Shown here piece by piece: positions 12,846 to 37,383 of a stretch of DNA of 50,849 nt. The DNA is taken from NCBI GenBank assembly GCA_963620955.1, contig CAVFCO010000113.1, forward strand, positions 1-50,849, written 5' to 3'. This DNA comes from Alistipes senegalensis (GTDB lineage Bacteria > Cyanobacteriota > Vampirovibrionia > Gastranaerophilales > Gastranaerophilaceae). Made by a program: the position numbers and the translations under genes. Each line of letters starts with the position of its first letter. Within the stretch, counting starts at the first letter, position 1. The notes below the pieces were generated by a model. The model had not been told where the DNA came from. It did no database searches and saw only the letters and a list, made by a program, of their open reading frames with translations.

Positions 12846-12852
12846 TTTTGTT

Positions 12853-12890
12853 TCGGTATTTGCAGTTTAATGCTGCGAATACCGATTTTT
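12853..12890 (+). terminator. Rho-independent terminator after rubrerythrin
   Basis: 13-bp stem tcggtatttgcag / ctgcgaataccga (one G-U pair), 7-nt loop, then TTTTT. Confidence 0.7.
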
Positions 12891-12893
12891 GCA

Positions 12894-14634: not shown

Positions 14635-15484
14635 ATTCTTGTTCTACTAATTTTGTGTATGTTGTGAATTCAAATCCAAAATTTTCTATTCTGAATTTCA
14701 TATCTTTGTTTATTGTAATCAAGTATTCGTCTTGTTTTTCAGAGTAATATGGGTGAATTAAGCATTCTACAAGAATGTTTTCATCATTTTTAAATACTCT
14801 CAAGCCGTTTTCAACAGTGTTGTTGTCCATCATTCCTGTATAACTTACACCAACAAGATATTTGTTTGTTTTTAAATCTGGATAATTTTTTAAAGTTTCT
14901 CTGTTTTTTAAAGTAAAACTGTTTAATAACGCCACTTTTATTTGATTTATCGGATATTTTAAATTCAAATGTTTGTTCAAAAGTGGAGTTATGTAAGGTC
15001 TTTCAAATTGAGTTCTAACGTAAGGAATTTTGTATTCGTGAGCAAGTTTGCAAGTTAATTCAAAAATGTTTGGAATACCGTGTGTGTGTACGTGAGAATC
15101 AATATGAGCAGGAATAAAATGTGGCAAAATCTTTTCGATTTGTGCTCTAAATTCAATTTCTAATTGGCGGATAAATTCTTTATCGTAAGATTTGATAAGG
15201 ATTTGCGACCAACTATTATTAAAAACACCGTCCTTGTTTACAAGCATAGGAATTTTGTTTGGGGCTGTTAATGCTTTACCCTCAATGATGTTTAAATGCA
15301 CACCAATACATAATTCTGGACATTCAGGTATAATTTCATTTACAACAGCATTAAAAGCCTCTCCGTTTGCACAAAGACTTGCAGATTTAAGCACTCCACT
15401 GTTATAACCGTCAATTACCCCATGGTTAATGTTTTTTGAGATACCTAAATCGTCTGCGTTTAATATAAATTTCTTATTACTCAT
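14621..15484 (-). CDS. YdjC/ChbG-family carbohydrate deacetylase
   Basis: FILNADDLG N-terminal motif and a HIDSHVHTH metal-site region. Start set at ATG 15484 (MSNKKF...), because the track extension runs across the divergent promoter. Confidence 0.8.
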   Translation of the reverse strand: MSNKKFILNADDLGISKNINHGVIDGYNSGVLKSASLCANGEAFNAVVNEIIPECPELCIGVHLNIIEGKALTAPNKIPMLVNKDGVFNNSWSQILIKSYDKEFIRQLEIEFRAQIEKILPHFIPAHIDSHVHTHGIPNIFELTCKLAHEYKIPYVRTQFERPYITPLLNKHLNLKYPINQIKVALLNSFTLKNRETLKNYPDLKTNKYLVGVSYTGMMDNNTVENGLRVFKNDENILVECLIHPYYSEKQDEYLITINKDMKFRIENFGFEFTTYTKLVEQEYEKV

Positions 15485-15553
15485 AAATTTTTCTTGCCCT
15501 TTGCTATAAATTATTATAATATAAAAACAAGCATAAAACAAAAAGGATATAAC

Positions 15554-16507
15554 ATGAAGAAACCCACTTTAGCAATTACAGTACCTTGTTACAACGAAGA
15601 ATTGTGTATTGAAAGCACTACAAACACATTGATAGAGGTCATAACAGATTTGATTGCTAAAGATAAAATAAACGATGACAGTTTTATTTACTTTGTTGAT
15701 GACGGTTCAAAGGATAAAACTTGGGAACTTATTTCTCAAATGCACGAAAAACATTCGCTTGTAAAAGGTGCAAAATTTGTTAGAAATTACGGCAACCAAA
15801 AGGCTCATATTGCAGGTTTGATGGGTGCTAGAGATTTTGGTTGTGATTGTGTTGTATCAATCGATGCGGACTTGCAACAAGACCCTTGGGCAATTGAAAA
15901 ATTTGTTGATAAATATATGGAAGGCTACGAAATCGTTGCTGGTATTAGAAACAGTCGTGATACAGATACTTTCTTGAAGAAAACAACTGCGATTTGTTTC
16001 TATAAAACAATGAATTTGTTGGGTGTAAAAATTCCGATGAATCATTCAGACTTCCGTCTTGTAAGCAAAAAAGCCCTTGACGTATTGGCTGAATATCCTG
16101 AAAAACAAATCTTTTTGAGAGGATTTTTCAACGAAATTGGTTTAAAAGAAGCATTTGTTAATTTTGATGTAAAACCAAGAATGAAAGGCGAATCAAAGTT
16201 CAACTATATGATTTTGTTCGGCTTGGCATTAAACGGTATAACTTCATTCAGCATTATGCCACTTAGAATTATCGCTGTTATAGGATTTTTAATGGCAGTA
16301 TTCTCTTTCGGTTTGGGTGTTGAAGTTTGCTATGAAAAATTTGTTCTAGATTCAACTCCAAGCGGTTGGGCAACAATTGTTGTATTAATGTCATTCTTTG
16401 GCGGGCTTCAATTGTTCTGTATGGGCATTATTGGCGAATACCTAGGTCAAGTTTATAGAGAAGTTAAAGCAAGGCCAAGATATATTGTTGATACAATTTT
16501 GAAATAA
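15554..16507 (+). CDS. Family 2 glycosyltransferase, polyprenyl-phosphate sugar transferase type (ArnC/GtrB/DPM1-like)
   Basis: VPCYNEE, VDDGSKD and SIDADLQQD motifs plus two C-terminal TM helices. Start set at ATG 15554 (MKKPTL...) with an AAAAGGA RBS. Confidence 0.85.
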   Translation: MKKPTLAITVPCYNEELCIESTTNTLIEVITDLIAKDKINDDSFIYFVDDGSKDKTWELISQMHEKHSLVKGAKFVRNYGNQKAHIAGLMGARDFGCDCVVSIDADLQQDPWAIEKFVDKYMEGYEIVAGIRNSRDTDTFLKKTTAICFYKTMNLLGVKIPMNHSDFRLVSKKALDVLAEYPEKQIFLRGFFNEIGLKEAFVNFDVKPRMKGESKFNYMILFGLALNGITSFSIMPLRIIAVIGFLMAVFSFGLGVEVCYEKFVLDSTPSGWATIVVLMSFFGGLQLFCMGIIGEYLGQVYREVKARPRYIVDTILK

Positions 16508-16523
16508 AAGTTTTTTAAGGTTT

Positions 16524-16566
16524 AAGGCGGAGCCGAGATGAAATCTCGGCTCCGCCTTTCCATTTC
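16524..16566 (+). terminator. Rho-independent terminator after the GT2 gene
   Basis: 16-bp GC-rich stem aaggcggagccgagat / atctcggctccgcctt, followed by a T-rich tail. Confidence 0.75.
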
Positions 16567-16589
16567 TATTATAAAATTTTCCAAAATAA

Positions 16590-16611
16590 AAAGCGGTCAT
16601 TTGACCGCTTT
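16590..16611 (-). terminator. Terminator-like hairpin for the ftsH / RHH-gene transcript
   Basis: Stem aaagcggtca / tgaccgcttt. On the minus strand it is followed by ttttatttt. Confidence 0.5.
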
Positions 16612-16732
16612 GAAAATTTTTACCTAATTAAATTTACTTACTTACCTTTTTTCCCTATATGTTTTACCAAGCATCTGTGCTTGTTCAAAAAACTTGCTTG
16701 TTAATTTAACGGAACAGAAATGTTCCATTAAA

Positions 16733-16921
16733 TTAGTCTAACAATGCTTCAAGAATTGCTGCGTTTTTGCTTGCTACTTTTGCGTTGAAGTTGTTGTTTC
16801 TGTGAATATATGTTCTCAAGGCTTCACGAATTAATTCTGAACGTGTGCGGTTTTCATTTCCTGCAACTGCATCGATTTGATCCAAAAATTGTTCTGGCAT
16901 TGAAATTAAAACTTTAGCCAT
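16733..16921 (-). CDS. Ribbon-helix-helix (CopG/MetJ-like) DNA-binding protein
   Basis: 62 aa. MAKVLISMPEQFLDQID....RTRSELIREALRTYI matches a beta-strand, helix, helix RHH pattern. Confidence 0.7.
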   Translation of the reverse strand: MAKVLISMPEQFLDQIDAVAGNENRTRSELIREALRTYIHRNNNFNAKVASKNAAILEALLD

Positions 16922-17024
16922 TGTTAAATATCTCCTATTGTGTAATATACCTCGTACTCATGTAAAGTTTTTTTTGAGAAAAAAATTGCGTTTTTTGTAA
17001 ATTATGTGTTTACAAAAGTTTACA

Positions 17025-18911
17025 TTAGAACTCAGAGCGAGATTTTTTAACTTGTTCCATTAATTCAACGAATTCTTTTTCGTCTAGAGTTTCCATTTCA
17101 AGAAGTTTGTGGGAGATTGTGTCAAGCATATCTCTGTTATCTTCTAGTAATGTTTTTGCAAGTTCATATTGCTCATTAACGATTCTTTGAACTTCGTTAT
17201 CAATTTCTGCTGCAACTTCTTCTGAGTAATCTCTTTGGTGTCCGAAATCACGTCCCATAAATACGTGGTCTTCGCTCTTACCGTAAGCAAGATTGCCTAA
17301 CTTTTCACTCATGCCGTATTTTGTAACCATTGCTCGAGCCATTTGAGAAACTTTTTCAAGGTCGTTAGAAGCACCAGTTGTAATGAATTCTTTACCGTAG
17401 ATGATTTCTTCTGCAACTCTACCGCCAAGAGTCATGGCGATTTTATCCAATAATTGAACTTTTTTCATTGTTAAGTGGTCTTTTTCCGGAAGTACCATTG
17501 TAACCCCAAGAGCCATACCACGAGGGATAATTGACACTTTGTGTAATGGGTCGCAGTTTTTAAGAAGTTTTGCAAGTAAAGCATGTCCAACTTCGTGATA
17601 AGCAGTATTTTCTTTTTCTTCGTCTGAGATAATACGGCTTTTCTTTTCAGGGCCTGCCATAACTTTGTCGATTGCTTCTTCCAAATCGTCCATATAAATT
17701 CTAGTTTTGTTATGACGAGCAGCAAGTAAAGCGGCTTCGTTCAAAAGGTTTTGTAAATCAGCACCAGTGAACCCTGGAGTTCTTTTTGCTAAAGTTTTCA
17801 AATCAACTTCTTCTGCAAGAGGTTTGTTTTTAGCATGAACTTTAAGGATTTGTTCTCTGCCTAAGATGTCAGGTCTGTTGATAACGATTTGTCTGTCAAA
17901 TCTACCTGGTCTTAGAAGTGCATTGTCTAAGATGTCAGGTCTGTTTGTTGCTGCGATAACAATGATGTTCATTGTTTCGTCGAAACCGTCCATTTCAACA
18001 AGTAATTGGTTAAGAGTTTGTTCTCTTTCGTCGTGTCCGCCACCAAGACCTGCACCACGTTGACGACCTACAGCATCAATTTCGTCGATGAAAATAATAC
18101 ATGGTTGATGTTTTTTTGCTTGTTCAAACAAATCACGAACACGGCTTGCACCAACACCAACGAACATTTCAACGAAGTCAGAACCAGAGATTGAGAAGAA
18201 AGGAACTCCTGCTTCTCCGGCAACGGCTTTAGCCATTAATGTTTTACCAGTCCCTGGAGGTCCTACAAGTAGAACACCTTTTGGAATTTTCGCACCTAAT
18301 TTGATATATTTTTCGCCATTTTTAAGAAAATCAACGATTTCTTCAAGTTCTTTCTTTTCCTCGTCAATCCCTGCAACATCGCTGAATAGAACTTTTACTT
18401 TGCTATCTAAAAGCATTTTTGCTCTGCTTTTGCCAAAAGACATTGCTTGAGAACCGCCTGCTGAAAGTCCTTTAGCCATAAGGATTAAGAAGATAATCAC
18501 AAAGATTGGTAGAGCAAGTGAGCCGATTAAATTCATCAATTTAGAAGATTCACTTGGCTTGCTAACTGAGATTTCAACGTTTGCTTCTTCAAGTTTTTTG
18601 ATAAGACTAGCATCATTTGGAGTTAGTACTTTGTATTGTAAAACAGGAGTAGATTGATTCATGCTGTAAAGTAGAGGAAGTTCTTTTCCTGATTTTTTTG
18701 CTTGTTTTTCAGGTTGTTTTTTAGGAGTTGCGATTAAAAAAGTTTTGTCCATTTCGACAGACTTAATTTCATCGTTCGCAAGTTTTTGTAGGAAGTTTGT
18801 GTAAGTAAGTTCTTCAGTTGTAGTAACAGGACCTGAGAATAGCATAGACACAAATGCCAAAACCATTATGCCTAAAATTATGTACATTCCTAACGATTGA
18901 CTTTTATTCAT
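17025..18911 (-). CDS. ftsH: ATP-dependent zinc metalloprotease FtsH
   Basis: GPPGTGKT Walker [10 protein letters not shown] Walker [19 protein letters not shown] second region of homology, HEVGHAL zinc site, and two N-terminal TM helices. Confidence 0.95.
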
Positions 18912-19028
18912 TTAATTTACCTTTCGTATATATAATCAATAATTATAATATATCATAAATAATATAAGGCAAGGTATGACAAGAGTATAAAAACTATTAA
19001 TATAAATTTATAAAAGTTATTTCAACAC

Positions 19029-19057
19029 TTGTGCAAAATTTGAAAATAGTGCATAAT
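19029..19057 (+). promoter_or_regulatory. Putative promoter of the three-gene fibre operon
   Basis: TTGTGC, 17-nt spacer, CATAAT. GGAG RBS lies 5 nt before the GTG start at 19081. Confidence 0.3.
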
Positions 19058-19080
19058 GAATAATATAAACTGGAGATACT

Positions 19081-21141
19081 GTGAACCGATTTTTCAATAA
19101 GAAAATTTTAGCCTTCACTCTCGCTGAAATGATGGTCGTATTGGCACTTTTCAGTGTAATTTCTGCTGCGACAATGCCAGTTATAACAGCAAGACAAAAA
19201 ATGGAGGGTGCTGCTTCAACTTCAGGTGGTATTGAGGGTGATGTAGACGACCCATGGACTCATTTTGAAACCTTTAAGGGCTTGGCTTATTATAACGCAA
19301 GCCAACCTGATACTTCTGCAGTAATGGTTGGTGATGAAGTTACAGACTCATCTTCAAGTTTGGGTAAACCAAGTTTGATTGTTGTGGATAAATATGGTAC
19401 AGGTACAAGCGGTAATGAAGATGCCAGCCAAATAGGACTTTTTAAAGACGTAAGTGGTGTTCCATATTATGGCGGTAGAATTATGATGAGTAATAGTAGC
19501 AATCAATCTACAGGTAGTATTGCTATTGGTGCAAGTGCTTTATCTTACAATTCAAATACTACAGTAAGAACATATAACACGGCTATCGGTTCAAATGCTT
19601 TAGCAGATAATAGTTCAAATACTTCAAAAATTGGCAGTGTTGGTATTGGAGCAAGCACACTATTTGGCTGTAGAAGTGCTTATTCGGTTGCAATTGGTAA
19701 TCAAGCAGGTTATAAAACTACTTCTGAACGTTCTGTAATGATTGGTAACCATGCGGGATATAGTTCTTCAGGTACAGGGAGTTTACAATATTCCGTTGCG
19801 ATTGGTGATAGTGCATTTATGTCATCAAATGCTACAGTCTCAACAAAATTTTCTACTGCGATTGGTACGTATGCCGGAGGTAGTGGAAATGCTGATAATA
19901 GTACGTATATTGGTTATTATGCAGGTGTAAACAATAATTCAACGGACTTAGCGGGTGCTGTTGGTATTGGTACAAGAGCAATGTCTTTAGCACAAGATGG
20001 TGCAGAGGGTGTTGGTATTGGATATTATGCCAGTTATGATGGTTCAGGTAATGCAATTTCTATTGGCAGATATGCAGGTGCTTGGGCTGATAACGGTGGC
20101 GGAACACCAATGTCTTCTGTTTATATTGGTTATCGAGCAGGATACTATCAAGGTGAGTCAGAAAATGCTGTAATGATTGGTCATGATGCAGGGTATGCTA
20201 GTGCCATTACAACAGGTGATGATTATTCAAAAGGTCCTGTATTTATAGGATATAATGCCGGATATAGAAGTTCTGATGAGGCAGATGGAAATAATAACTT
20301 TGCTCCTGCGGTAATTGTTGGTCATGGTGCTGGTTCTGACGGTAATTTTGGTGATGCTGCATATTCTATTTATATGGGAAATCATAGCGGTTATTTGACA
20401 CAAGCCTACGATGCTGTGTGTCTTGGACCTTATACTTGTTCGGATTATCAAAATAGCAACTGGAATGGTGGCTTTGTTGGTATTGCAGGAAAACATGGTT
20501 CTTGGGGAGATATGACCTTAGTTTCAAGTGAAAAAATGAGTGTTATCGGTGATTTACCAAGTACATTAAGAACATCGTCATTGAATACTGGTAACGATTT
20601 GATGTTAATATCACCATTGTATGCTGATCAAACTCCATCAACAAATATACTTTCATCAATCATTTTGTTTGGAGAAGTTTTTAGTTCAAAAAGTTCTATG
20701 ACAATTTTTTCTGATAAGAGATTGAAAGAAAATATCAGACCTGCAAAATACGGTTTGAATGAAGTTAGAAAAATTAACGTATACAACTACAACTGGAAAG
20801 AGGGCGATACAAAAACACCTCAAGTTGGTGTAATTGCTCAAGAGGTTCAAAAAATCATTCCAGAAAGTGTTCACGTAGACAAAGACAAAGAGTTTGGCGG
20901 ATACCTGACGGTTGACGGTTCTTGGTTCCTATACTCAATGGTTAATGCGATAAAAGATTTGGATAAACAAGTTCTAACAATCCAAAAGAAACTTGTTGCG
21001 TATACAAAAGAATATGTTTCTTTGGTACAACGAGTTAATAAATTAGAAAAAGAAGTTAAAGTTTTGGAAAAAGAAAACAAAACTTTGACGCATGAAGTAA
21101 AAGTGGCTTACACAAAAGTCAAAAAGGCAGAAAAAAGATAA
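19081..21141 (+). CDS. Prepilin-leader / Gly-Ala-Tyr repeat fibre / S74 chaperone-domain protein, paralog 1 of 3
   Basis: GTG start. N-terminus is MNRFFNKKILA|FTLAEMMVVLALFSVISAATMPVIT. About 17 degenerate repeats such as SVAIGNQAGY, SVMIGNHAGY, STYIGYYAG. SDKRLKENI starts at Ser544. C-terminal heptad-like KLEKEVKVLEKENK. Confidence 0.8.
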   Translation: MNRFFNKKILAFTLAEMMVVLALFSVISAATMPVITARQKMEGAASTSGGIEGDVDDPWTHFETFKGLAYYNASQPDTSAVMVGDEVTDSSSSLGKPSLIVVDKYGTGTSGNEDASQIGLFKDVSGVPYYGGRIMMSNSSNQSTGSIAIGASALSYNSNTTVRTYNTAIGSNALADNSSNTSKIGSVGIGASTLFGCRSAYSVAIGNQAGYKTTSERSVMIGNHAGYSSSGTGSLQYSVAIGDSAFMSSNATVSTKFSTAIGTYAGGSGNADNSTYIGYYAGVNNNSTDLAGAVGIGTRAMSLAQDGAEGVGIGYYASYDGSGNAISIGRYAGAWADNGGGTPMSSVYIGYRAGYYQGESENAVMIGHDAGYASAITTGDDYSKGPVFIGYNAGYRSSDEADGNNNFAPAVIVGHGAGSDGNFGDAAYSIYMGNHSGYLTQAYDAVCLGPYTCSDYQNSNWNGGFVGIAGKHGSWGDMTLVSSEKMSVIGDLPSTLRTSSLNTGNDLMLISPLYADQTPSTNILSSIILFGEVFSSKSSMTIFSDKRLKENIRPAKYGLNEVRKINVYNYNWKEGDTKTPQVGVIAQEVQKIIPESVHVDKDKEFGGYLTVDGSWFLYSMVNAIKDLDKQVLTIQKKLVAYTKEYVSLVQRVNKLEKEVKVLEKENKTLTHEVKVAYTKVKKAEKR
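20710..20967 (+). other. Peptidase S74-like intramolecular chaperone (tail-fibre autoprocessing) domain, paralog 1
   Basis: FSDKRLKENIRPAKYGLNEVRKINVYNYNWK...PQVGVIAQEVQKIIPESV...YSMVNAIKDL matches the Ser/Lys dyad domain of endosialidase and tail-fibre C-termini as I recall it. Confidence 0.7.
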
Positions 21142-21151
21142 CGGAGAATAG

Positions 21152-23299
21152 ATGAAAAATTTCCCTAAAAATTTCATAGCATTCACCTTGTCAGAAATGA
21201 TGATTGTATTGTTAATCATCAGTGTAATTTCTGCTGCAACTTTGCCTGCAATTACTTCTCGTAATGAATCAAATGCAAGCCAAATTTCAGCATCTACTGG
21301 TGGTACAGTAAATGTATCTTCAAACTGGATGTACGATACAACTTACACAAGAGGGTATTACTACAAAAAAGATAGTGATTACAAATTTGTGATAGGTTCT
21401 CCAAGATATCTTTTTAATGACAGTTCAAATAATAGTGAAGCTGGTTTTAACATCAACCGTAATAACAATGGTAGAGCAGTATTAGAAATTACAAGGTCAA
21501 CTAATAGAGGCTCTAGAATAAAAGACCGCTCTGACATTATTTTGTACGATAAAAATAAATTAAATGTCGGCAGAATTTCTATGGACGACTATAACTCTGT
21601 TGCTATCGGTAAAAATGCAGGATATACTTCATATTCAGCAACAAATATCGATAATTCATTAGTTGTCGGACATCTTGCAGGTGATAATTTTGGTTCAAGA
21701 AATACCATAATTGGTGCTTATGCTAATTACGGCGGTGGTATTGCTTATACAGACAGTGTTTTAGTCGGTTCTAATATAAGAAATCAAGACAATATGTATT
21801 CAAGTGTTGTTATTGGTTCTTATGCTTCTGCTGATAGTTATAAAAACGGCAAAAATTATTCAAATTTGTATAACTACGTTGGTATTGGTACTTATGCCGG
21901 ACACGGCAACCCATCTAACAATATGTATGGTGTAAATGTTGGTTATTACGCCGGTGCAAGAGGTGAAAACAAAGTTAATAACATAAGCCATTCACATATC
22001 AATATCGGTGCCTATGCCGGTTATGATTCATCACCAAATGGATATATCCCTGGACTTAATAGAACTGACCCAAAAATCAACTACCAATCAAGTGTTATCA
22101 ATGTTGGATATTGGGCTGGTTCAGAACAATATGAAGCAAAAAATGTAAGCAACAAGCCAAGTGGTGATGGTTTTGGTGCTGTTAATATTGGTTATTATGC
22201 CGGAAATAGTTCTGTAAGAGGTGGTAATATCAATATTGGTCAATATACTGACTACAATAACTCTGGACAAGATAATAAATCAGGCGATTTTAAAATTAAT
22301 ATTGGTGAATTTGCAGGTGAAAACGCAAAAGGATTGTCTGAAAAGGTTGTAAATATCGGTCGTAATGCCGGTAGAAATAGTACTGCTCCATATTCTATAA
22401 ATATTGGTGTTTATGCTGGTGGTAATTCTACTCAAAATAGAAATATCAATATCGGTGCTTATGCCGGTTTTAGTAACAATGCAACGGATTCTATCTTTAT
22501 TGGGCATTACGCAGGTGCGTATGTTCAAGGTAGCCAAAATATTGTAATTTCATCACTTACTACACCTCAAACGGTAACATCATCGTTTAATGGTAATCAA
22601 AATGTCTTTATTGGTTGTTTAAAAGATTTATCTAAAGTAAGTTACAACTTCTCTTACAGATATTGTATTGGTGGTCAATTGCCAAGAGATACTGTAGAAT
22701 ATGGTTCAAGTAAAATATGGTCTACATCAGATTCATCAGGTACTTACAAATATCAAATGTTATTTGTCCCTGGGGGTATAAAAGCATCATCTGCTGTCGG
22801 TTTCCCTTATACATCAATCGTGCTTTATGCAAGATATGTTGTTGCTCCAAATGCTACAATGAAAGCATTTTCTGACAAACGATTAAAAGAAAATATTAAA
22901 CCAACAAAATACGGTATCGACAAATTAAGAAATGTTATAGTTTATCAATACAATATGATTGGCAAACCTGAACCTTGTATCGGTGTTGTTGCTCAACAAT
23001 TGATGAAATTCTATCCGTATGCGGTTAACAAAGCACCTGAAGCAGTTAAAAAAGGTGGATATCTTTCTGTAGATACAGATTGGATTATATATTCTCTTGC
23101 TCAATCAATAAAAGATGTTGACAAAGTTGCAACAGAATTGAGCGAGGATTTGTCTTTGAAAGTTAAAAATTTGATTAGTTTAACTCAAAGAGTAAACAAT
23201 ATTGAAGTTAGACTTGATAGAATTGCAAAATCTAATCAAGAAACAAAAAAACAACTAAAAGAAATGGAAAGTATTACAAAAAAATGGAGTAGCAAGTAA
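21152..23299 (+). CDS. Prepilin-leader / repeat fibre / S74 chaperone-domain protein, paralog 2 of 3
   Basis: MKNFPKNFIA|FTLSEMMIVLLIISVISAATLPAIT. Repeats such as NSVAIGKNAGY, VNVGYYAGA, INIGAYAGY, VNIGYYAGN, INIGVYAGG. SDKRLKENI starts at Ser574. C-terminal coiled-coil-like tail. Starts 10 nt after paralog 1. Confidence 0.8.
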   Translation: MKNFPKNFIAFTLSEMMIVLLIISVISAATLPAITSRNESNASQISASTGGTVNVSSNWMYDTTYTRGYYYKKDSDYKFVIGSPRYLFNDSSNNSEAGFNINRNNNGRAVLEITRSTNRGSRIKDRSDIILYDKNKLNVGRISMDDYNSVAIGKNAGYTSYSATNIDNSLVVGHLAGDNFGSRNTIIGAYANYGGGIAYTDSVLVGSNIRNQDNMYSSVVIGSYASADSYKNGKNYSNLYNYVGIGTYAGHGNPSNNMYGVNVGYYAGARGENKVNNISHSHINIGAYAGYDSSPNGYIPGLNRTDPKINYQSSVINVGYWAGSEQYEAKNVSNKPSGDGFGAVNIGYYAGNSSVRGGNINIGQYTDYNNSGQDNKSGDFKINIGEFAGENAKGLSEKVVNIGRNAGRNSTAPYSINIGVYAGGNSTQNRNINIGAYAGFSNNATDSIFIGHYAGAYVQGSQNIVISSLTTPQTVTSSFNGNQNVFIGCLKDLSKVSYNFSYRYCIGGQLPRDTVEYGSSKIWSTSDSSGTYKYQMLFVPGGIKASSAVGFPYTSIVLYARYVVAPNATMKAFSDKRLKENIKPTKYGIDKLRNVIVYQYNMIGKPEPCIGVVAQQLMKFYPYAVNKAPEAVKKGGYLSVDTDWIIYSLAQSIKDVDKVATELSEDLSLKVKNLISLTQRVNNIEVRLDRIAKSNQETKKQLKEMESITKKWSSK
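22871..23122 (+). other. Peptidase S74-like intramolecular chaperone domain, paralog 2
   Basis: FSDKRLKENIKPTKYGIDKLRNVIVYQYNM...CIGVVAQQLMKFYPYAV...YSLAQSIKDV. Confidence 0.7.
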
Positions 23300-23304
23300 T
23301 CGTT

Positions 23305-25455
23305 ATGAAAAAATTTAAACAAAAAAATTGCATAGCCTTTACCTTAATGGAAATGACACTTGTTTTGCTTATTACAAGTATCATTGCTGCTGCATCTACT
23401 CCTATTGTAACATCTGCTGTTTCAGACTACGCAGACCAAAACTACAAGGCTACAGGTGGTGAAGCACAAGATGTTCCATGGCGTGTATCATCAGGTTATG
23501 ACGGCGGAGGTATTTATAACTCTAAAAAAGAAATAACATCTCCTGTTGGTATGAACGTAAAATTTGGTTCAAACGCATCTAACTACGGATACCCAACACT
23601 TGCGATTGAATCTTTAGGACAATATAACCTTTTCAATGCTCCGCAAATTGCTATGATAAATGCCGCTACAACAGGATATTCTACTATTGGAATGGACGAA
23701 TTTGAAAATGTTGCAATAGTCAATGGTGCAGACTCTTTCATTTCAAGTAAGAGCAGTTCTTCAAAAAATACATATATTGGCGAAAAAAGTGTATTTTTAG
23801 GTGCAGACATTCAAACAACTGCTCCGTATGCTAGTACCGCATTGGATGATATGTATTATGACAATTCTGTTTTAGTCGGTCAATATATTAATACTCGTAT
23901 GACTGAAAACGGCATTTACATGGGTTATGGGATTACTCGTGGAGTTAACGAAAGAAACGTAATCGCAATCGGTAACAACCTAAACTCAGAAGAAGCTTAC
24001 AGTGCAACTTACCAAGGTAACATTCAAATTGGTAATTATGGTAACCAAGCAAAAATTGCAAATTGTATCGCAATCGGTAACTATGCGGCTTATTCTAGCG
24101 GTTTTAAACATGATATCGCAATAGGTCATTTTGCGGGCATGAATTCTGCATTTTATACTTCCTTTATATATACTGTAGGTGATTCTGCAAATATTTCTAT
24201 GGGGCAATATGCAGGTGCAATTAAAAGTCTGTATAACGGAAATATTATTGCCCTCGGAAATTTTAATACAATAAGTATCGGTGGTTATGCCGGCTATATT
24301 GATGTAGATTCTGGACGTTCAAATAGTAATAACATAAATATTGGAGATTTTGCCGGACTTTTCCAAAAAACTACTGCTGCTGCTATCGATTCACTTTATC
24401 AAAATATTAGTATCGGTTATTATGCCGGAGCAAGACCGTTTTCGGCGAATTCAGGTGTAACTTTGGCAAATAACAATGTTGTCCTTGGATACTATGCAGG
24501 TTACAATGCTCCATATAGTAATAGAAACGTTATCATTGGGCCATACGTAGGTAACCAAGTCCAAACTACGAGTTCCATTATAATCGGTAGTGGTTATAAA
24601 GAACGAGAAGTTGACCAAACGGGCTCTGCGTTGGGTAAAGACAATAGTCAAATATCTTATGGTGCTTTAATTTTAGGTACCGGTGCTGGTGCGTATAGTA
24701 ATGCAACTTACGGAAACGTGAATATCGGCTACTATGCCGGAAACCTCTCATCTCGATTCTCTAAACTATATGGTAATGTTGCTATTGGTCCAAATACTTG
24801 CAGAGCGGTTAGTGGGCAAAACAAGTGGTGTCTTGGCTGGGGAAGCCAAGTTGTATGGAATGCAATCTCCCTTGTCGATAATACAACAGTTTGGGATCAT
24901 ACATCAGATGCTCCTCAAATGTTTATTGGTTATGCCGGTACTAGTACTTTAAATTACGATTCATCTGACTGGAATCAAACAGCGATTACTCTATATGCCT
25001 CAAATGTATTTAGACCATCATCGACAAGTTTTAATACTTTGCGTTGGTCAGATAAAAGACTTAAAACAAACATATCAAGAGTAGTTGGCTCTTTAGACAA
25101 AATTAGAAAAGTAAACATCTACGATTATACACTTAAAAAAGACGAACACCACACTCCAAGAATCGGTGTTTTGGCTCAAGAGTTCAAAAAAATCTTCCCA
25201 ACAGAAGTTAAACAAGAACCAAATAGCAAAATGTATGCAGTTGGTGTAGATTCGCTTATCTACACAATGCTTGATGCGATAAAAGATTTGGATATAAATA
25301 TCCAAAATCTACAAAAATATTTTGATGCATACGTTAACGACTTTATGGGCTTGAAATCAAAAGTTGCTAAACTAGAAGCACAATCTAAAAAACTCCAAAC
25401 TGAAAATGCAGAAATGAAATCAAGACTTGCAAAAATTAATGCAAAATTGAAATAG
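23305..25455 (+). CDS. Prepilin-leader / repeat fibre / S74 chaperone-domain protein, paralog 3 of 3
   Basis: MKKFKQKNCIA|FTLMEMTLVLLITSIIAAASTPIVT. Repeats such as CIAIGNYAAY, DIAIGHFAGM, ISIGGYAGY, ISIGYYAGA, VNIGYYAGN. SDKRLKTNI starts at Ser582. C-terminal coiled coil KVAKLEAQSKKLQTENAEMKSRLAKI. Starts 5 nt after paralog 2. Confidence 0.8.
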   Translation: MKKFKQKNCIAFTLMEMTLVLLITSIIAAASTPIVTSAVSDYADQNYKATGGEAQDVPWRVSSGYDGGGIYNSKKEITSPVGMNVKFGSNASNYGYPTLAIESLGQYNLFNAPQIAMINAATTGYSTIGMDEFENVAIVNGADSFISSKSSSSKNTYIGEKSVFLGADIQTTAPYASTALDDMYYDNSVLVGQYINTRMTENGIYMGYGITRGVNERNVIAIGNNLNSEEAYSATYQGNIQIGNYGNQAKIANCIAIGNYAAYSSGFKHDIAIGHFAGMNSAFYTSFIYTVGDSANISMGQYAGAIKSLYNGNIIALGNFNTISIGGYAGYIDVDSGRSNSNNINIGDFAGLFQKTTAAAIDSLYQNISIGYYAGARPFSANSGVTLANNNVVLGYYAGYNAPYSNRNVIIGPYVGNQVQTTSSIIIGSGYKEREVDQTGSALGKDNSQISYGALILGTGAGAYSNATYGNVNIGYYAGNLSSRFSKLYGNVAIGPNTCRAVSGQNKWCLGWGSQVVWNAISLVDNTTVWDHTSDAPQMFIGYAGTSTLNYDSSDWNQTAITLYASNVFRPSSTSFNTLRWSDKRLKTNISRVVGSLDKIRKVNIYDYTLKKDEHHTPRIGVLAQEFKKIFPTEVKQEPNSKMYAVGVDSLIYTMLDAIKDLDINIQNLQKYFDAYVNDFMGLKSKVAKLEAQSKKLQTENAEMKSRLAKINAKLK
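25048..25293 (+). other. Peptidase S74-like intramolecular chaperone domain, paralog 3
   Basis: WSDKRLKTNISRVVGSLDKIRKVNIYDYTLK...PRIGVLAQEFKKIFPTEV...YTMLDAIKDL. Confidence 0.7.
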
Positions 25456-25546
25456 GTTTGAAAATTTGAGTTTTTAAGTAAAAGTTTTAGTTTTTTCTGA
25501 TGTTTTTTACGGTCGGTTTTGATTTTTGATAGTTATTTTGTTTTTA

Positions 25547-25574
25547 ACGGCGGTTTGCATTCGCAAACCGCCGT
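25547..25574 (+). terminator. GC-rich hairpin downstream of the fibre operon
   Basis: 12-bp stem acggcggtttgc / gcaaaccgccgt, 4-nt loop. Preceded by a T-rich tract but lacks a clean 3' U-tail. Confidence 0.5.
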
Positions 25575-25619
25575 AAATCTTATAAAATCTTTCGATTTTA
25601 AAAATCTTCCCACCCCGCC

Positions 25620-25650
25620 ACTTGATTTTTGGGACAAAATCAAGTATAAT
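25620..25650 (+). promoter_or_regulatory. Near-consensus promoter overlapped by a perfect inverted repeat (likely TA operator)
   Basis: TTGATT (25622..25627), 17-nt spacer, TATAAT (25645..25650). The inverted repeat ACTTGATTTT (25620..25629) / AAAATCAAGT (25636..25645) spans the -35 element and the spacer. Confidence 0.6.
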
Positions 25651-25671
25651 GAATATACAAGGAATTAAAAT

Positions 25672-26001
25672 ATGTGTCAACTTTTTACAGCCGAATATAC
25701 AAATGAAGCCTTGAAACAGTTAGAAGAACTTGAAGAAAAGGAGTTTAAAAAAATATTAAAAGCGATTTATATTTTTGAACATGTTGGTACAAAGTATAAA
25801 TATATAAATGATTTAGGTAATGGTTTATTTGAATTAAAGCCAGACAACGTCAGAGCATATTTTAAATATGCAAAAAATAAAATAATAATCATTGGTTTGG
25901 TTGTTTTAAAAAAGACACAAAAAGCACCAAAACGATATATCGAACAAGCATTAAAAAATATTGAACGATATTTACAAGAACATAAGGAGTTAGACTTATG
26001 A
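25672..26001 (+). CDS. Type II toxin, RelE/ParE superfamily (phage Gp49 / HigB-like)
   Basis: 109 aa. The LGNGLFELKPDNVRAYFKY..NKIIIIGLVVLKKTQKAPKRYIEQA pattern is typical of Gp49-like toxins. The toxin gene comes first, as in higBA. Confidence 0.75.
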   Translation: MCQLFTAEYTNEALKQLEELEEKEFKKILKAIYIFEHVGTKYKYINDLGNGLFELKPDNVRAYFKYAKNKIIIIGLVVLKKTQKAPKRYIEQALKNIERYLQEHKELDL

Positions 26002-26249
26002 GAAACAAAATTACAACAAAAGAATTAATTCAAAATCGTCTTTCTGAAGAAGATGCAAAAATGTTGATTCAAGAAGCAGAAGACGAAATTCAAGAAATAA
26101 AATGGGGCGGAAAACGTGAAGGTGCAGGACGTAAGCCAAAAACTGGTGAAGTCCTTGAGTTCCGTGTTAGATTGTCAAAAAAAGAAAAACAATTCATTGA
26201 TTATGCAAGAAAACACAAACTTAATTACGATGAACTAATGCAAGGATAA
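25998..26249 (+). CDS. Putative antitoxin with a C-terminal ribbon-helix-helix-like segment
   Basis: ATGA start/stop overlap with the toxin gene and an AAGGAG RBS. GGKREGAGRKPK basic linker, followed by LEFRVRLSKKEKQFIDYARKHKLNYDELM (strand, helix, helix pattern). Confidence 0.55.
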   Translation: MRNKITTKELIQNRLSEEDAKMLIQEAEDEIQEIKWGGKREGAGRKPKTGEVLEFRVRLSKKEKQFIDYARKHKLNYDELMQG

Positions 26250-26502
26250 TTTTAAATTTTTAACATGCCCCACTTGACAAGCAAAGCAAGATTTACAATG
26301 CGTTAGGGCGATTGTTTTTTTAATTGTAAAATTTTGTAACAATTTTTTTAGTGTGATTTTTACTATTTAATTGACTATGATTTTTGATGTAGTACCATAG
26401 AATAGCATGCTTTTTGATTATCAAATATACATTTTGTAAAGAAATATTAAAAAGATTAAAACGTACGTACACAATAGAATATAAAAGAATGAGGTTATTT
26501 TA

Positions 26503-29500
26503 ATGTCGACTAAATTTGCAAAAAGGGTAACTCCAATGGGTATTCCAGCAACTAATTTGGATTATTTACCTGATTTAATTGAAGTGCAAAAAAAATCTTT
26601 TGAATGGTTTTTAAAAGAGGGTTTGAAAGAAGAATTACTTGCTTTTTCACCTATTAAAGACTATACAGGAAGATTAGAATTACACTTCCTACCAAACTAT
26701 ACTTTCGATAATGCTAAATACACTATCGAAGAAGCAAGAATTCACGATGCTACTTACGCAAAACAATTACGTGTTATGGTAAGACTTGTAAACCGTGATT
26801 CTGGTGAAATCAAAGAACAAGAAGTTTATATCGGTGATATTCCGACTATGACTGACAAAGGTACTTTCATTGTTAACGGTGCAGAACGTGTTATCGTTTC
26901 TCAAATCGTTCGTTCTCCAGGGGTTTACTACAAACGTGAAATCTCTCCAACTGGTAAACGTTTATACAATGCTACAATTATTCCAAACCGTGGTGCTTGG
27001 ATTAAAATTGAAACAGATTCTAACGATTTAATCTACGTTAAAATCGATAAAAACAGAAAAATCTTAGCAACTACATTATTAAAGGCAATGGGCTTATCAG
27101 TTGCTGAAATGGAAGCATCTTTCACTCACTTTGAATTCTTAAAGAAAACTTTAGAAAAAGATACAGCAGAAACTACAGATGATGCTTTAATCGATGTATA
27201 CAAAAAATTAAGACCTGGTGACCCTGCATCTGCTCAAGGTGGACGTCAAATTATCGAAGCACGTTTCTTTGATGAAAAGAAATATGATATCGGTCGTGTT
27301 GGTCGTTACAAAATGAACAAAAAATTGAACTTGAATATCCCTGCTTCTCAAAGAACATTGACTATTCAAGATATCGTTGCATCTATCGAATACTTAATCA
27401 ACTTAACTTATGATGAAGGTTCTGTAGATGATATCGACCACTTAGGTAACAGACGTGTTCGTTCAGTTGGTGAATTGTTACAAAACCAATTCAGAGTTGG
27501 TTTAAGCCGTATTGAACGTATCGTTAAAGAAAGAATGACACTACAAGATAGTGAAACTCTTACTCCATTGAACTTATTGAACACTAAACCATTAGTTGCT
27601 TCACTAAAAGAATTCTTTGGAAGTTCTCAATTATCACAATTTATGGACCAAATCAACCCATTGGCTGAATTGACTCACAAAAGACGTATTTCAGCATTAG
27701 GACCTGGCGGTTTACAAAGAGAACGTGCAGGTTTTGCGGTTCGTGATATTCACCCTTCACACTATGGACGTATTTGTCCGATTGAAACTCCTGAAGGTCC
27801 GAACGCAGGTTTGATTGGTTCTTTAGCAACTCACGCTAAAATCAACAATTACGGTTTCATCGAATCTCCATTCTTCGTTGTAAAAGACGGTGTGGTTACA
27901 GATGAAGTAGTTTATATGACAGCAGACGAAGACGAAAACTTACACTGTGCTCCTGCAGACGTACAATTGAACGAAGACGGCACTTTTAAAGATGCAAACG
28001 TTCCAGTTCGTTACAGATCAGAGTTCGTAATGTGTGAATCTTCAAAAGTTGACTTCGTTGGTGTTTGCCCAATTCAAATCATCTCAGTTGCGACATCAGT
28101 AATTCCATTTATCGAACACGATGACGCTAACCGTGCATTGATGGGTTCAAACATGCAACGTCAATCAGTACCTCTTTTAATCACTGAAAGACCAAGAGTT
28201 GCAACTGGTATGGAAGCCAGAGCAGCAAGAGATTCAGGTATGTTAATCATTTCTGAATACGACGGTGTTGTTGAAAGAGTAGTTGGTGAAGAAATTACAA
28301 TCAGAGACACTCAAGGTGTTCCTCACGTATATCAATTAATGAAATATGTAAGAAGCAACCAAGACACTTGTATCAACCAAAAACCTATCGTAAAAGAAGG
28401 TGATAAGGTTAAAGCAGGTGATGTAATCGCAGACGGTGCTTCAACATGTGGTGGTGAACTTTCATTAGGTAAAAATGTTTTAATTGCATATATGCCTTGG
28501 GAAGGATATAACTTCGAAGATGCTATCTTGTTATCAGAAAGATGCGTTCACGATGATATCTTTACTTCAGTTCACATCGAAAAATTAGAAATTGACGCAA
28601 GACAAACAAAACTAGGACCAGAAGAAATTACTCGTGAAATTCCAAATGTTTCAGAAGAATCTTTGAGACACTTAGATGAACGTGGTATTGTTCGTATCGG
28701 TGCTAGAGTGTATGCAGATGATATCCTTGTTGGTAAAGTAACTCCAAAAGGTGAATCTGAACACCCACCAGAAGAAAAATTGTTAAGAGCAATCTTCGCT
28801 GAAAAAGCACGTGATGTAAAAGACAACTCATTAAGAGTTCCTCACGGTGAAGGTGGTAGAGTACTTGACGTTAAAGTATTTGATAGAGAAAAAGGTGATG
28901 AATTACCACCTGGAGCAAATACAGTAATCAGAGTTTACATCGCTCAAAAACGTAAAGTTTCTGTAGGTGATAAACTTTCAGGTCGTCACGGTAACAAAGG
29001 TATCGTATCAAGAATTCTTGCAAAAGAAGATATGCCATTCTTACCAGACGGTACTCCAGTAGACGTAGTATTGAACCCTCTAGGTGTTCCTTCTCGTATG
29101 AACGTAGGTCAAACTTATGAACACTTATTAGGTTTAGCATCATACTTAACAAAAGAATATTATGCAGCACCTTCATTTGACGAACGTTTCGGCAAAAACA
29201 TGTCTGAAAAAGTTACAAAAGAAGAATTGTTACGTGGTATCAGAGAAACTGGTTGCGATTGGGTTGGCGAAGATGGTAAAGTTCGCTTAATCGACGGTCG
29301 TACTGGTGAACCATTTGATGAACCGGTTGCAGTAGGTTTAACTTACTTCTTGAAACTTGTTCACTTGGTAGATGATAAAATCCACGCTCGTTCAACAGGT
29401 CCTTACTCATTAGTAACACAACAACCATTGGGTGGTAAAGCACAATTCGGTGGTCAAAGATTTGGTGAAATGGAAGTTTGGGCTCTTGAAGCATACGGTG

Positions 29501-29817
29501 CTGCATACACACTTCAAGAAATGCTTACAATCAAATCAGATGATGTTAACGGACGTAATAGAGCGTACGAAGCAATTGTTAAAGGTGATAACATTCCAAG
29601 ACCTGGTATCCCTGAATCATTCAAAGTACTTGTAAGAGAATTACAAAGTATCGGTTTGGATATCACAGTTGCTAAAAAAGACGGTGTTGAAGTTGACTTA
29701 ATGAGCGATATGGACGACTTGAGAAAGGCTGCTCCAAAACGCACATTATCAGACATTGATTCAGAGTTGTTAAACATTAACTTCTTTGAAACACCAACAA
29801 CATTCGGTGATCTATAA
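26503..29817 (+). CDS. rpoB: DNA-directed RNA polymerase subunit beta
   Basis: 1104 aa with canonical blocks [35 protein letters not shown] and [15 protein letters not shown]. Confidence 0.97.
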
Positions 29818-29866: not shown

Positions 29867-31576
<1,710 letters not shown>

Positions 31577-31591
31577 TATAAAGGTAAAAAA

Positions 31592-37381: not shown

Positions 37382-37383
37382 AA

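Follow-up and report, generated by a model that had tools for sequence, protein, structure and literature searches.

The closest described relatives of the fibre genes analysed here are found among the modular pilins surveyed by Raynaud et al. 2021 (PMC8179133), in which the same domain string, namely an N-terminal methylation motif, YadA-head repeats and Peptidase S74, is one of the more frequent architectures. Dataset S1 of that survey contains 29 proteins with IPR012902-IPR030392, four with IPR012902-IPR008640-IPR030392 and a further three with two YadA-head matches. The architecture is treated there as table counts without structural, phyletic or functional analysis, and a check for an earlier functional description revealed only these counts and a one-line reading of the N_methyl-S74 modular pilins as 'peptidase activity'. 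In PilB and PilC of S. sanguinis, the modular pilins that have been studied, the grafted module follows an entire pilin head, whereas in the fibre proteins here only the α1N helix is detectable. The T4b minor pilins CofB (ETEC CFA/III) and TcpB (V. cholerae TCP) are similar in that a pilin N-terminal helix is placed on an obligately trimeric protein with a flexible linker and trimerising β-rich C-terminal domains (PMC8179133). Located at the pilus tip, they function in binding and in capping the pilus or starting its assembly, a role that we propose by analogy for the fibres here. In contrast, they contain a full pilin domain and are encoded in pilus operons, outside which the fibre genes lie, and they have neither YadA-like repeats nor a self-cleaving chaperone. 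The fibre family profile had 17 matches in the PDB (E 0.01 or better), with neither CofB nor TcpB among them, and sequence similarity to these two proteins was undetectable.

The mosaic adhesive trimer (MAT) fibres of Bdellovibrio bacteriovorus, an S74 subfamily (Caulton et al. 2024, PMC10769870), are likewise chromosomal, multi-copy, phage-like β-helical trimers with a C-terminal autoproteolytic SDxxxK S74 chaperone and variable tips; their self-cleavage was shown experimentally, and that of the fibres here is predicted. Instead of a prepilin-type signal, MAT fibres carry a Sec signal peptide together with a conserved β-rich anchoring domain of ~130 aa, and their host is a predator, while the fibre host is a gut fermenter of another phylum, related to the cyanobacteria. 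Phage tail fibres, tailspikes and endosialidase (K1F endoNF 3gw6, T5 pb1, phi29 gp12 3gud) share the S74 domain, the Ser/Lys dyad, the upstream β-solenoid and the polarity, with attachment at the N-terminus and the tip at the C-terminus; however, their N-terminus docks to the virion, and the pilin leader was not found in the viral sequences searched. The trimeric autotransporter adhesins YadA, EibD and CbpF share the xxAIGxxA head repeat and a left-handed β-roll-type solenoid, but their polarity is opposite to that of the N-terminally anchored fibres here and their repeat period is 14 rather than 15-24. They also have a C-terminal YadA_anchor β-barrel and a Sec signal, both absent here (no YadA_anchor match in Pfam). 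Because of the survey listing and the CofB, TcpB and MAT precedents, the pilin-S74 fibre is considered real and uncharacterised but not a new class, contrary to the original prediction of a possible new class without precedent. We see about an even chance that the products of the three genes are modular minor type IV pilins carrying a phage-style, self-chaperoned trimeric fibre.

Genomic context of the fibre genes

The window, which is the whole 50,849-nucleotide (50.8 kb) stretch analysed, contains fibre genes 1 (19081..21141, 686 aa, GTG start), 2 (21152..23299, 715 aa) and 3 (23305..25455, 716 aa), all on the + strand and separated by 10 and 5 nt in the ORF list. Each was defined from its ORF, Pfam and TIGR02532, together with an AF2 model for gene 1 and with positional orthologue clades 2 and 3 for genes 2 and 3. 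The parts of gene 1 are, in order, a leader, the α1N helix, an N-domain, β-solenoid repeats, a variable tip, the S74 chaperone and a coiled coil. The triplet is flanked by ftsH (17025-18911, - strand) on one side and by a Gp49/HigB-like toxin with a small ORF (25672-26249) and rpoB (26503-29817) on the other; rpoC occurs as separate rpoC1 and rpoC2 genes. This ftsH-fibre triplet-rpoB synteny recurs in related Gastranaerophilales (Melainabacteria) genomes, and the loci related to the triplet come from Gastranaerophilales MAGs. Neither phage structural or injection-system genes nor pil/gsp genes were found in the whole window. The original prediction of a co-directional trio with these lengths and gaps was matched exactly by the ORFs, its flanks were recovered, and its Melainabacteria-like host agrees with the MAG relatives and the split rpoC. 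Its view that this is no obvious prophage and no pilus operon was borne out by the stable synteny, by the gene content of the window and by the absence of the leader from viral matches.

The fibre locus is chromosomal and not a prophage. The reading of its genes as chromosomal cargo, that is, the tail fibre of a prophage, tailocin or contractile injection system, draws on matches to PHROGs tail-fibre families (E down to 6e-21), on the NCBI label of relatives ('tail fiber domain-containing protein') and on a BFVD Foldseek comparison that returned proteins from phages and giant viruses in which a solenoid is combined with S74 (E down to 2e-13). This reading is highly improbable, as the window has no phage or injection-system gene, the GC content of the fibre genes resembles that of the flanks, the genes keep their place between ftsH and rpoB even though the fibres have diverged to ~30% identity, and viral matches never extend to the leader, covering just the S74 end or S74 together with the shaft. 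In IMG/VR, 0/111 S74 ORFs (80 best loci) carried the leader and the leader DNA pattern had no match, while matches in GenBank phages were confined to the S74 region; the IMG/VR contigs and GenBank phages searched contain no viral example of the leader-S74 fusion.

Prepilin-type leader and N-terminal domain

The class III (prepilin-type) signal of gene 1 (19081..19191, + strand) was assigned from invariant columns, the comparison of the family profile with pilins and the AF2 model. It consists of a basic leader (aa 1-11), a predicted cleavage site at A11|F12 and a hydrophobic α1N helix extending to ~aa 37, with E16, S25 and P33 at pilin positions +5, +14 and +22. The leader and α1N of genes 2 (21152-21259) and 3 (23305-23415), both on the + strand, have predicted cleavage sites at A10|F11 and A11|F12, respectively. 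A prepilin-type leader had been proposed for all three proteins, and this was supported at the family level, where [A/S/G]-F-T-L-x-E, F+1, E+5, P+22 and S/T+14 were each present in 120/120 best homologues; it was only partly reproduced by the prepilin models. Gene 1 exceeded both cutoffs (22.6 bits for Pfam N_methyl, cutoff 21.2; 17.6 bits for TIGR02532, cutoff 16.3), gene 2 exceeded only that of TIGR02532 (16.7 bits, with N_methyl at 19.8) and gene 3 neither (N_methyl 16.9, TIGR02532 11 bits). The invariant N-terminal columns in a 60-sequence alignment were F12, T13, L14, E16, A29 and P33, and judged from these alignments, the prepilin signature is unambiguous for the family as a whole. Ordinary short pilin-like genes from this lineage have Ala at -1 in nine cases, Gly in eight and Ser in one; since Ala is also used there, this residue is no argument against processing.

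The family profile matched the α1N of the solved type IV pilins 9laa, 8pfb, 2hi2 and 1ay2, and the pilin matches in the PDB ended at ~residue 44. In the AF2 model of gene 1, the N-terminal helix spans only aa 14-31 and is followed by a disordered linker that is Gly/Ser/Ala-rich at aa 38-58 (pLDDT <50). The conserved β-rich N-domain (19255..19488, + strand; aa 59-136), whose strands were modelled with pLDDT 50-70, starts at the invariant W59 and is a module restricted to the fibre family. No recognisable globular pilin head followed the hydrophobic helix, either in the comparison of the family profile with the PDB or in the AF2 model. The fibre proteins are 'α1N-only' pilins, unlike PilB, CofB or TcpB.

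Repeat shaft and variable tip

The YadA-head-like region of gene 1 (19516..20475, + strand) contains ~20 degenerate S-V-A-I-G-x-x-A-G-Y repeats with a period of 15-24, which AF2 modelled as a confident single-chain β-solenoid (pLDDT >90 at aa 180-280). At the usual β-solenoid rise of 4.8 Å per turn, ~20 turns would give a shaft of ~10 nm. The pattern [IVLMF]G..[AST] occurred 21, 17 and 17 times in genes 1, 2 and 3, mostly at spacings of 15-24 residues, compared with shuffled means of 5.5, 3.9 and 4.3 (1000 shuffles, maximum 13). The family profile matched the YadA collagen-binding head 1p9h (E 8e-8), and Foldseek gave weak matches of the fibre model to 9u93 and 2xqh. The least conserved segment of gene 1 (20476..20709, + strand; aa 466-543) lies immediately before the predicted cleavage site; its identity among positional orthologues was 0.21-0.26, compared with 0.61 for the leader and 0.47-0.65 for S74 and the coiled coil, and it would become the distal tip after processing.

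S74 chaperone and C-terminal helix

The Peptidase_S74 core of gene 1 (20710..20871, + strand; Pfam aa 544-597, E 8e-18) contains Ser544 and Lys549, and the domains of genes 2 (22871-23026) and 3 (25048-25212), also on the + strand, start at Ser574 and Ser582. All three scored well above the Pfam cutoff of 22 bits (64.9, 37.7 and 54.4 bits for genes 1, 2 and 3). The motif was SDKRLKENI in genes 1 and 2 and SDKRLKTNI in gene 3, and S544, D545 and K549 were invariant in the 60-sequence alignment; autocleavage of gene 1 is predicted N-terminal to Ser544. In the S74 region, the family profile matched the MyRF ICA 7dc3, which was also the top Foldseek match of the domain, the tail fibre 8jov, the phi29 gp12 chaperone 3gud and 6f45, all solved homologues with experimental autocleavage. 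In every full-length protein with the N-terminal module, SDxxxK sits 106-143 residues from the C-terminus. A long C-terminal helix in gene 1 (20920..21135, + strand; aa 614-685) lies within the chaperone fragment to be released; AlphaFold2 modelled it as one helix, and Pfam coiled-coil family matches were weak. The YadA-like repeats, the S74 domain with its Ser/Lys dyad at exactly these serines, the SDKRLK(E/T)NI motif and the C-terminal coiled coil had all been anticipated from the sequence and were recovered, the solenoid in a monomer model and the helix in gene 1.

MEROPS S74 is a peptidase family, and the 'peptidase activity' proposed by Raynaud et al. 2021 (PMC8179133) would make these proteins pilus-presented proteases with S74 as an effector peptidase on external substrates. 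We consider this very unlikely, because characterised S74 domains all act once, in cis, as self-removing folding chaperones (PMC10769870; solved homologues), S74 here occupies the C-terminal region ahead of a trimerising helix, just as in fibres, and the conserved motif coincides with the scissile Ser.

Proposed assembly and display

If the three genes encode modular minor pilins, the basic leader and α1N helix would insert each chain into the inner membrane with the remainder in the periplasm, and the prepilin peptidase of the lineage would cut after Ala-1 and methylate Phe+1. The S74 domain and long helix would align three chains in register, and from this C-terminal end they would start the folding of the YadA-head-like β-solenoid. 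Ser544 (or Ser574, Ser582) with Lys+5 would then remove the chaperone fragment of ~135-143 residues, exposing the hypervariable upstream segment as the distal tip. The mature trimer would carry three pilin α1N helices on flexible linkers and could be taken up and displayed on the surface by the type IV filament machinery (ATPase, platform and secretin), most likely as a cap that initiates or tips the pilus, like the homotrimeric CofB and TcpB. The fibres would be hypervariable adhesins, probably displayed at the pilus tip.

Machinery is present in the lineage. In locus L085, a fibre gene is followed after 550 bp, in the same orientation, by genes for a secretin, a T2SSE/MshEN ATPase and a T2SSF platform, locus L051 contains a PilT-like ATPase, and pilA, pilB, pilC, pilT and pilD were reported in Ca. 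Gastranaerophilus termiticola (PMC5877343). Across ~1.56 Mb of related loci, machinery genes lay next to fibre genes once or twice, which is about the chance expectation. This machinery, the invariant S74 and pilin residues, the coupling of the N-terminal module to SDxxxK, the non-viral nature of the locus, the fibre-like evolution (tip least conserved, fibres diverged relative to FtsH and RpoB), the AF2 single-chain solenoid as in YadA-type trimers and the precedents of modular pilins and trimeric CofB and TcpB (PMC8179133) are in favour of minor pilins. The missing pilin head, the prepilin scores of genes 2 and 3 at or below cutoff, the window without a pil or gsp gene and the chance-level adjacency are against them, as is the C3 symmetry of a trimer compared with the staggered one-start helix of the pilus core, a mismatch that the 20-residue linker would need to absorb.

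Some of these observations would suit envelope-anchored, non-pilus fibres, in which the prepilin-like N-terminus is only an anchor or export signal, as in archaeal surface proteins that use class III signals in this way. The mature trimer would be tethered by three helices or passed to another surface element, and would be an adhesin or coat fibre comparable to the Bdellovibrio MAT fibres. The undetectable pilin head, the housekeeping gene contexts without enrichment of machinery neighbours and the several copies per genome, like the MAT family (PMC10769870), point this way. However, E+5 and P+22, which matter for filament assembly and not for anchoring, are invariant among the 120 homologues, a shaft of ~10 nm, as estimated above, is too short to reach from the inner membrane to a diderm surface, and the lineage has a secretin. 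Since identity among positional orthologues is highest in the leader region (0.61-0.82, compared with ~0.3 for the shaft), a constraint that anchoring alone would not need, we take the leader to be more than a plain membrane anchor and regard the anchored fibre as possible but rather unlikely.

Divergence and arrangement of the three paralogues

The fibre genes were positional orthologues whose order 1-2-3 was kept across 10 genomes; best matches followed gene position in 89/90, 77/90 and 84/90 cases, with three position clades in the tree. Fibre identity in related genomes was 27-38%, compared with 90-93% for FtsH and 97-99% for RpoB, and by this sequence comparison, the fibre genes evolve very fast. 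The kept order and clades, the recurrence of threes elsewhere as 1+2 and 2+1 and the 10 and 5 nt gaps, which suggest co-translation, would fit a single heterotrimeric fibre with one chain per paralogue, much like the tip that GspI-J-K forms in type II secretion pseudopili. To our knowledge, all S74-chaperoned fibres characterised to date are homotrimers. Many loci have a single fibre gene, so homotrimers must be viable. The shafts also differ in length, as the cleavage sites of the three proteins lie up to ~80 residues apart and do not shift together from genome to genome (for example 544/574/582, 568/563/508 and 562/610/645), which an in-register heterotrimer would not readily tolerate. Together with the homotrimeric state of the characterised S74-chaperoned fibres (PMC10769870), these observations leave the heterotrimer improbable. 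For minor pilins, a separate homotrimer per paralogue is most likely, and the three paralogues would then be fast-evolving, alternative sticky pilus tips.

Domain organization of the fibre proteins

Three co-directional genes encoding paralogous fibre proteins were confirmed on the + strand: gene 1 (19081-21141, 686 aa, GTG start), gene 2 (21152-23299, 715 aa) and gene 3 (23305-25455, 716 aa), which are separated by gaps of only 10 and 5 nt. The Peptidase_S74 domain (PF13884) that the original prediction assigned to all three proteins was matched by Pfam above its cutoff of 22 bits in each of them (64.9, 37.7 and 54.4 bits for genes 1, 2 and 3, respectively), and the domain starts at Ser544, Ser574 and Ser582, the very serines that had been named. 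In an alignment of 60 family sequences, S544, D545 and K549 (gene 1 numbering) were invariant. Upon comparison of the family profile with all PDB sequences, each module of the proteins was matched separately. The S74 matches included the MyRF ICA structure 7dc3 (E 6e-10), the tail fibre 8jov (1e-9), 6f45 and phi29 gp12 (3gud), and the alignments placed Ser544 at the catalytic-site position and Lys549 at the conserved Lys. A Foldseek search with the AlphaFold2 model of gene 1 also revealed 7dc3 as the top PDB match, and a Foldseek search of BFVD returned many solenoid-plus-S74 proteins from phages and giant viruses. Judging from the sequence, trimer-dependent S74 autocleavage that would free a C-terminal fragment is a putative property of the fibre proteins.

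The repeat shaft was also evident from the sequences, as the motif [IVLMF]G..[AST] occurred 21, 17 and 17 times in genes 1, 2 and 3, compared with 4-5.5 times in shuffles (maximum 13), mostly at a spacing of 15-24 residues. The proposed relationship to YadA heads held at the level of the family, whose profile matched the YadA collagen-binding head 1p9h (E 8e-8, query residues 130-268), and precomputed PF05658 (YadA head) matches are recorded for some homologues, whereas the three window proteins alone gave no PF05658 match at E <= 1. In the AlphaFold2 monomer of gene 1 (mean pLDDT 72.8), a helix at residues 14-31 and a disordered Gly/Ser-rich linker at 28-55 precede a beta-rich N-domain modelled at low confidence; then come a long beta-solenoid, whose pLDDT exceeds 90 at residues 180-280, the S74 core and a single helix at 614-685. 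Foldseek matches of the shaft in the PDB were weak, since only one chain of a probable trimer was modelled. A promoter and terminator scan of 18700-26600 gave results no better than shuffles.

The prepilin-type N-terminus

A prepilin-type signal had been claimed for all three proteins. With cutoffs of 21.2 bits for Pfam N_methyl (PF07963) and 16.3 bits for TIGR02532, gene 1 scored above both (22.6 and 17.6 bits), gene 2 above the TIGR02532 cutoff only (19.8 and 16.7 bits) and gene 3 below both (16.9 and 11 bits), so that the models recognized the signal fully in gene 1, partly in gene 2 and not in gene 3. The motif is short, the scores of the window proteins lie near the thresholds, and the comparative sequence data settle them in favour of a predicted prepilin signature throughout the family. 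Among the relatives, the fibre gene of locus L085 scored 30.8 bits for N_methyl and 56 bits for S74. The pattern [A/S/G]-F-T-L-x-E (more loosely, F-T/S-L-x-E) was present in 120/120 of the best homologues, as were Glu+5, Pro+22 and Ser/Thr+14 (each 120/120). The short basic leader had a median length of 11 residues and precedes a hydrophobic segment of ~20 residues. Columns F12, T13, L14, E16, A29 and P33 were invariant in the 60-sequence alignment, in which the mean column identity was 21%. Pro+22 is a feature of T4a pilins. The family profile additionally matched the N-terminal helices of type IV pilins (9laa, 8pfb, 2hi2, 1ay2 and the Geobacter PilA-N 9egp), with E-values of 6e-4 to 9e-3 that were weaker than those of the S74 and YadA matches.

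A globular pilin head (amphipathic alpha1C on a beta-sheet) was not detectable; PDB pilin similarity ended at approximately residue 44, and helix 14-31 of the gene 1 model was followed by the disordered linker and the low-confidence beta domain rather than by a pilin head. As the similarity stops there and the helix gives way to a flexible linker, the pilin part of the fibre proteins is predicted to be 'alpha1N only'.

Gly at position -1 was not the rule among the 120 best homologues, in which Ala occurred 110 times, Ser 6 times and Gly 4 times. Ala at -1 is unusual for pilins. Nevertheless, we rejected this residue as a mark separating the fibres from true pilins, since Ala was found in 9/18 ordinary short pilin-like genes (~240 aa) of the same lineage, as frequently as Gly. 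Because these genes use Ala too, the prepilin peptidase of the lineage probably accepts it at -1. We also found four tandem pilin-like genes (229-251 aa) at 11539-14465 of the related locus L056, which share a leader ending in G before FTLAEVLITL and a common C-terminal motif, GCxGRIAxxGWKxDY. A fibre gene with almost canonical YadA-head repeats (STAIGxxAxA) is located ~1.1 kb upstream of these four, and ~240-aa proteins resembling the four pilin-like products recur in many other loci.

Genomic context of the fibre genes

The window is ordinary chromosome, with ftsH, rpoB, rpoC1/rpoC2, an Opp transporter, TPR proteins and genes of serine, polyamine and c-di-AMP metabolism. As had been stated from the sequence alone, neither phage genes nor pil/gsp genes were present anywhere in its 50.8 kb. 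The GC content of the fibre genes matched that of the flanks, and the order ftsH, three fibre genes, rpoB recurred in metagenomic contigs and MAGs. A prophage origin, in which the proteins would be phage tail fibres, was rejected, since the window and the syntenic loci hold housekeeping genes only. GenBank phages matched the S74 end alone, with 0/305 records covering >= 80% of the query; the leader was found in none of the 111 S74-type ORFs from the best 80 IMG/VR loci, and a degenerate DNA pattern for FTLAEMMV had no match in IMG/VR. The leader-S74 fusion was found in neither collection.

The rpoC gene was split at 29867-35455 into rpoC1 (569 aa) and rpoC2 (1287 aa), which is a cyanobacterial trait. 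The Melainabacteria-like host that had been suggested fits this split, which is in line with a Melainabacteria/Vampirovibrionia origin, and the best 80 relatives, which are almost all labelled Gastranaerophilales or Melainabacteria.

The interval 25672-26249, which separates the fibre operon from rpoB, holds a Gp49/HigB-like toxin gene (PF05973, E 2e-9) and an 83-aa ORF with no Pfam match; the two overlap by 4 nt and are a probable toxin-antitoxin pair. The absence of this pair in the syntenic loci L001 and L003, in which no more than about 300-400 bp lie between the fibre genes and rpoB, points to a recent insertion. An AdoCbl-II (B12) riboswitch (36424-36502; 40 bits, cutoff 36.5) was located upstream of three co-directional ORFs at 36641-38537 (246, 166 and 206 aa, with no Pfam match for any), which are predicted to be B12-regulated. 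A phospholipase-D-like gene on the - strand (12894-14634), which forms one ORF of 601-606 aa in both L001 and L003, is broken here into two overlapping ORFs (500 and 101 aa) through a frameshift, by decay to a pseudogene or by an assembly error.

Distribution of the family

In a scan that covered one genome for each GTDB species, at least 356 relatives were found. Almost all of the best 80 were labelled Gastranaerophilales or Melainabacteria, including the complete MEL.A1 chromosome; several of the genomes held several fibre loci, and 118 ORFs across these loci carried both leader and S74, either alone or, in many cases, as groups of three. When 1.84 billion representatives were searched exhaustively with residues 1-140, no more than 55 clusters were recovered, and the N-domain retrieved the fibre family only. 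Every full-length relative in this set contained the SDxxxK motif, located 106-143 residues from the protein end in each full-length cluster, and for this reason the N-terminal module and the S74 end are strictly coupled.

Some carriers of fibre genes were MAGs labelled Anaerovoracaceae, Muribaculaceae, Heliobacteriaceae or Clostridium sp. CAG:967 (L010, L023, L027, L031, L035, L048, L058, L061, L064, L082, L084 and L085). Despite its label, L010 showed the Gastranaerophilales ftsH-fibre-rpoB synteny with a 93% identical FtsH, and such labels probably reflect mis-binning or outdated names. A second conserved arrangement consisted of two tandem fibre genes and one on the opposite strand (L008, 8129-15425; L059, L069, L074 and L083). 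An S-adenosylmethionine synthetase gene lies between the pair and the opposite-strand gene in L008, the one locus in which the intervening gene was identified. This arrangement often adjoins a 463-aa ORF that was also flagged by the leader regex and that is an MFS-transporter gene in L008.

Divergence of the three paralogues

Comparison of 10 triplet loci revealed that best hits followed gene position in 89/90, 77/90 and 84/90 cases for genes 1, 2 and 3, respectively, and an NJ tree contained three position clades, each repeating the genome order. Since the proteins cluster by position and the clades repeat this order, the triplication is older than these 10 genomes, with all three copies kept.

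The fibres diverged far faster than their neighbours FtsH and RpoB. In L001, FtsH was 98.7% and RpoB 99.5% identical, while the fibres were 77-81% identical; the values were 93%, 97-99% and 31-38% in L009, L010 and L014 (with no RpoB match in L009), and 90%, 97% and 27-32% in L003, L015 and L042. The most conserved parts were the leader (identity 0.61-0.82) and the S74 domain with its helix (0.4-0.65), compared with ~0.3 in the shaft, and the lowest identity in gene 1 was found in the segment just before the predicted cleavage site (0.21-0.26). Constant modules for presumed attachment and folding, combined with a variable tip, resemble the classic pattern of receptor-binding fibres. The contrast between near-identical flanks and ~30%-identical fibres makes it likely that hosts, immunity or phages exert a strong diversifying pressure on the fibre genes, and these could serve as strain markers.

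Comparison with known systems

The observation itself was confirmed, and the interpretation first placed on it was supported in part. The claim that the combination had no precedent did not stand, as Raynaud et al. 2021 (PMC8179133) already lists pilin-motif plus S74 architectures: Dataset S1 of that paper contains IPR012902-IPR030392 (29 proteins), IPR012902-IPR008640-IPR030392 (4 proteins) and the latter with two IPR008640 matches (3 proteins). The text of the same paper reads the S74 module as 'peptidase activity', which would make the proteins pilus-borne peptidases. A literature search for S74 with pilin or prepilin found nothing relevant beyond this paper. In our view, the N_methyl-(YadA-head)-S74 architecture was catalogued, not characterised, and was misread, and the fibre reading corrects the only published one.

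Cellular S74 fibres are known from the Bdellovibrio MAT family, in which 13/21 members have a proven autocleaving S74 domain (PMC10769870). MAT fibres are described as having a Sec signal, a conserved beta-rich N-terminal domain of ~130 aa and another anchor (PMC10769870), whereas the fibres found here have a prepilin-type signal instead. A trimeric autotransporter adhesin was rejected, because the YadA_anchor C-terminal beta-barrel had no Pfam match in the three proteins, which end in S74 plus helix. Trimeric tip pilins exist in CofB and TcpB (PMC8179133); their likeness to the fibres is in mechanism only, and neither came up when the family profile was compared with the PDB (E <= 0.01) or among the Foldseek matches.

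What is new here is a pilin helix that lacks a head, the combination of all three modules in what is read as a fibre, the Gastranaerophilales restriction among the best 80 of at least 356 relatives, the conservation of the triplet beside rpoB and the extreme divergence rate.

Proposed assembly and filament machinery

There is, in our estimation, an even chance that the fibre proteins are pilus-displayed trimeric adhesins. The class III signal would insert the chain in the membrane, and prepilin peptidase would cut the leader and methylate the N-terminus. In the periplasm, the S74 domain and its helix would drive trimerisation and C-to-N folding of the beta-roll shaft, after which Ser/Lys autocleavage would discard the last 135-143 residues and expose the variable tip. 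The three-helix N-terminus could then be taken up by the type IV filament machinery for display through the secretin, and by analogy with homotrimeric CofB and TcpB the pilus cap would be its most likely place. The main rival, an envelope fibre outside any pilus, seems unlikely.

Homotrimers appear more likely than one heterotrimeric fibre built from the three paralogues, because single-gene loci are common and the shaft lengths of the paralogues differ by up to ~80 residues without co-varying. The linker from P+22 to W59 also spans 48-49 residues in all three paralogues, hence a heterotrimer would have no built-in stagger.

Pilus-displayed trimers would show how a virus-type self-cleaving trimerisation module was joined to a type IV pilin assembly signal, and would connect phage receptor-binding fibres with type IV filaments, two large toolkits that have been studied apart. 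Gastranaerophilales are uncultured but widespread in the guts of humans and animals, and the fibres are candidates for their main adhesins. More tentatively, and well short of an even chance, the proteins may represent a new kind of type IV filament subunit, in which a headless alpha1N is fused to a self-chaperoned, phage-derived trimeric beta-roll, the three helices of one fibre form a nucleating pilus cap, and gut Melainabacteria have pili with 'tail-fibre' tips that are interchangeable and diversify rapidly. If true, cells would have re-used viral receptor-binding technology on a retractable filament.

The window contained no genes for a prepilin peptidase or filament machinery. A search for GspE/PilB/PilT Walker motifs in 88 related loci and the window (1.56 Mb) gave two matches only: in L085, genes for a secretin, a T2SSE/MshEN ATPase and a T2SSF platform follow a fibre gene on the same strand at a distance of 550 bp, and in L051, a PilT-like ATPase lies near a fibre gene. 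We do not claim genetic linkage of the fibres to pilus machinery, as one or two cases in 1.56 Mb are close to chance; these genes indicate that the lineage owns type IV filament machinery, and adjacency is no proof of linkage. Pili are not mentioned in Di Rienzi et al. 2013, and Ca. Gastranaerophilus termiticola was reported to encode pilA, pilB, pilC, pilT and pilD (PMC5877343). The secretin-T2SSE(MshEN)-T2SSF cluster of L085 is compact (12086-17903) and is preceded by an unannotated 221-aa ORF; the fibre gene directly upstream of it is short (519 aa), and this is the sole such adjacency among the 88 related loci.
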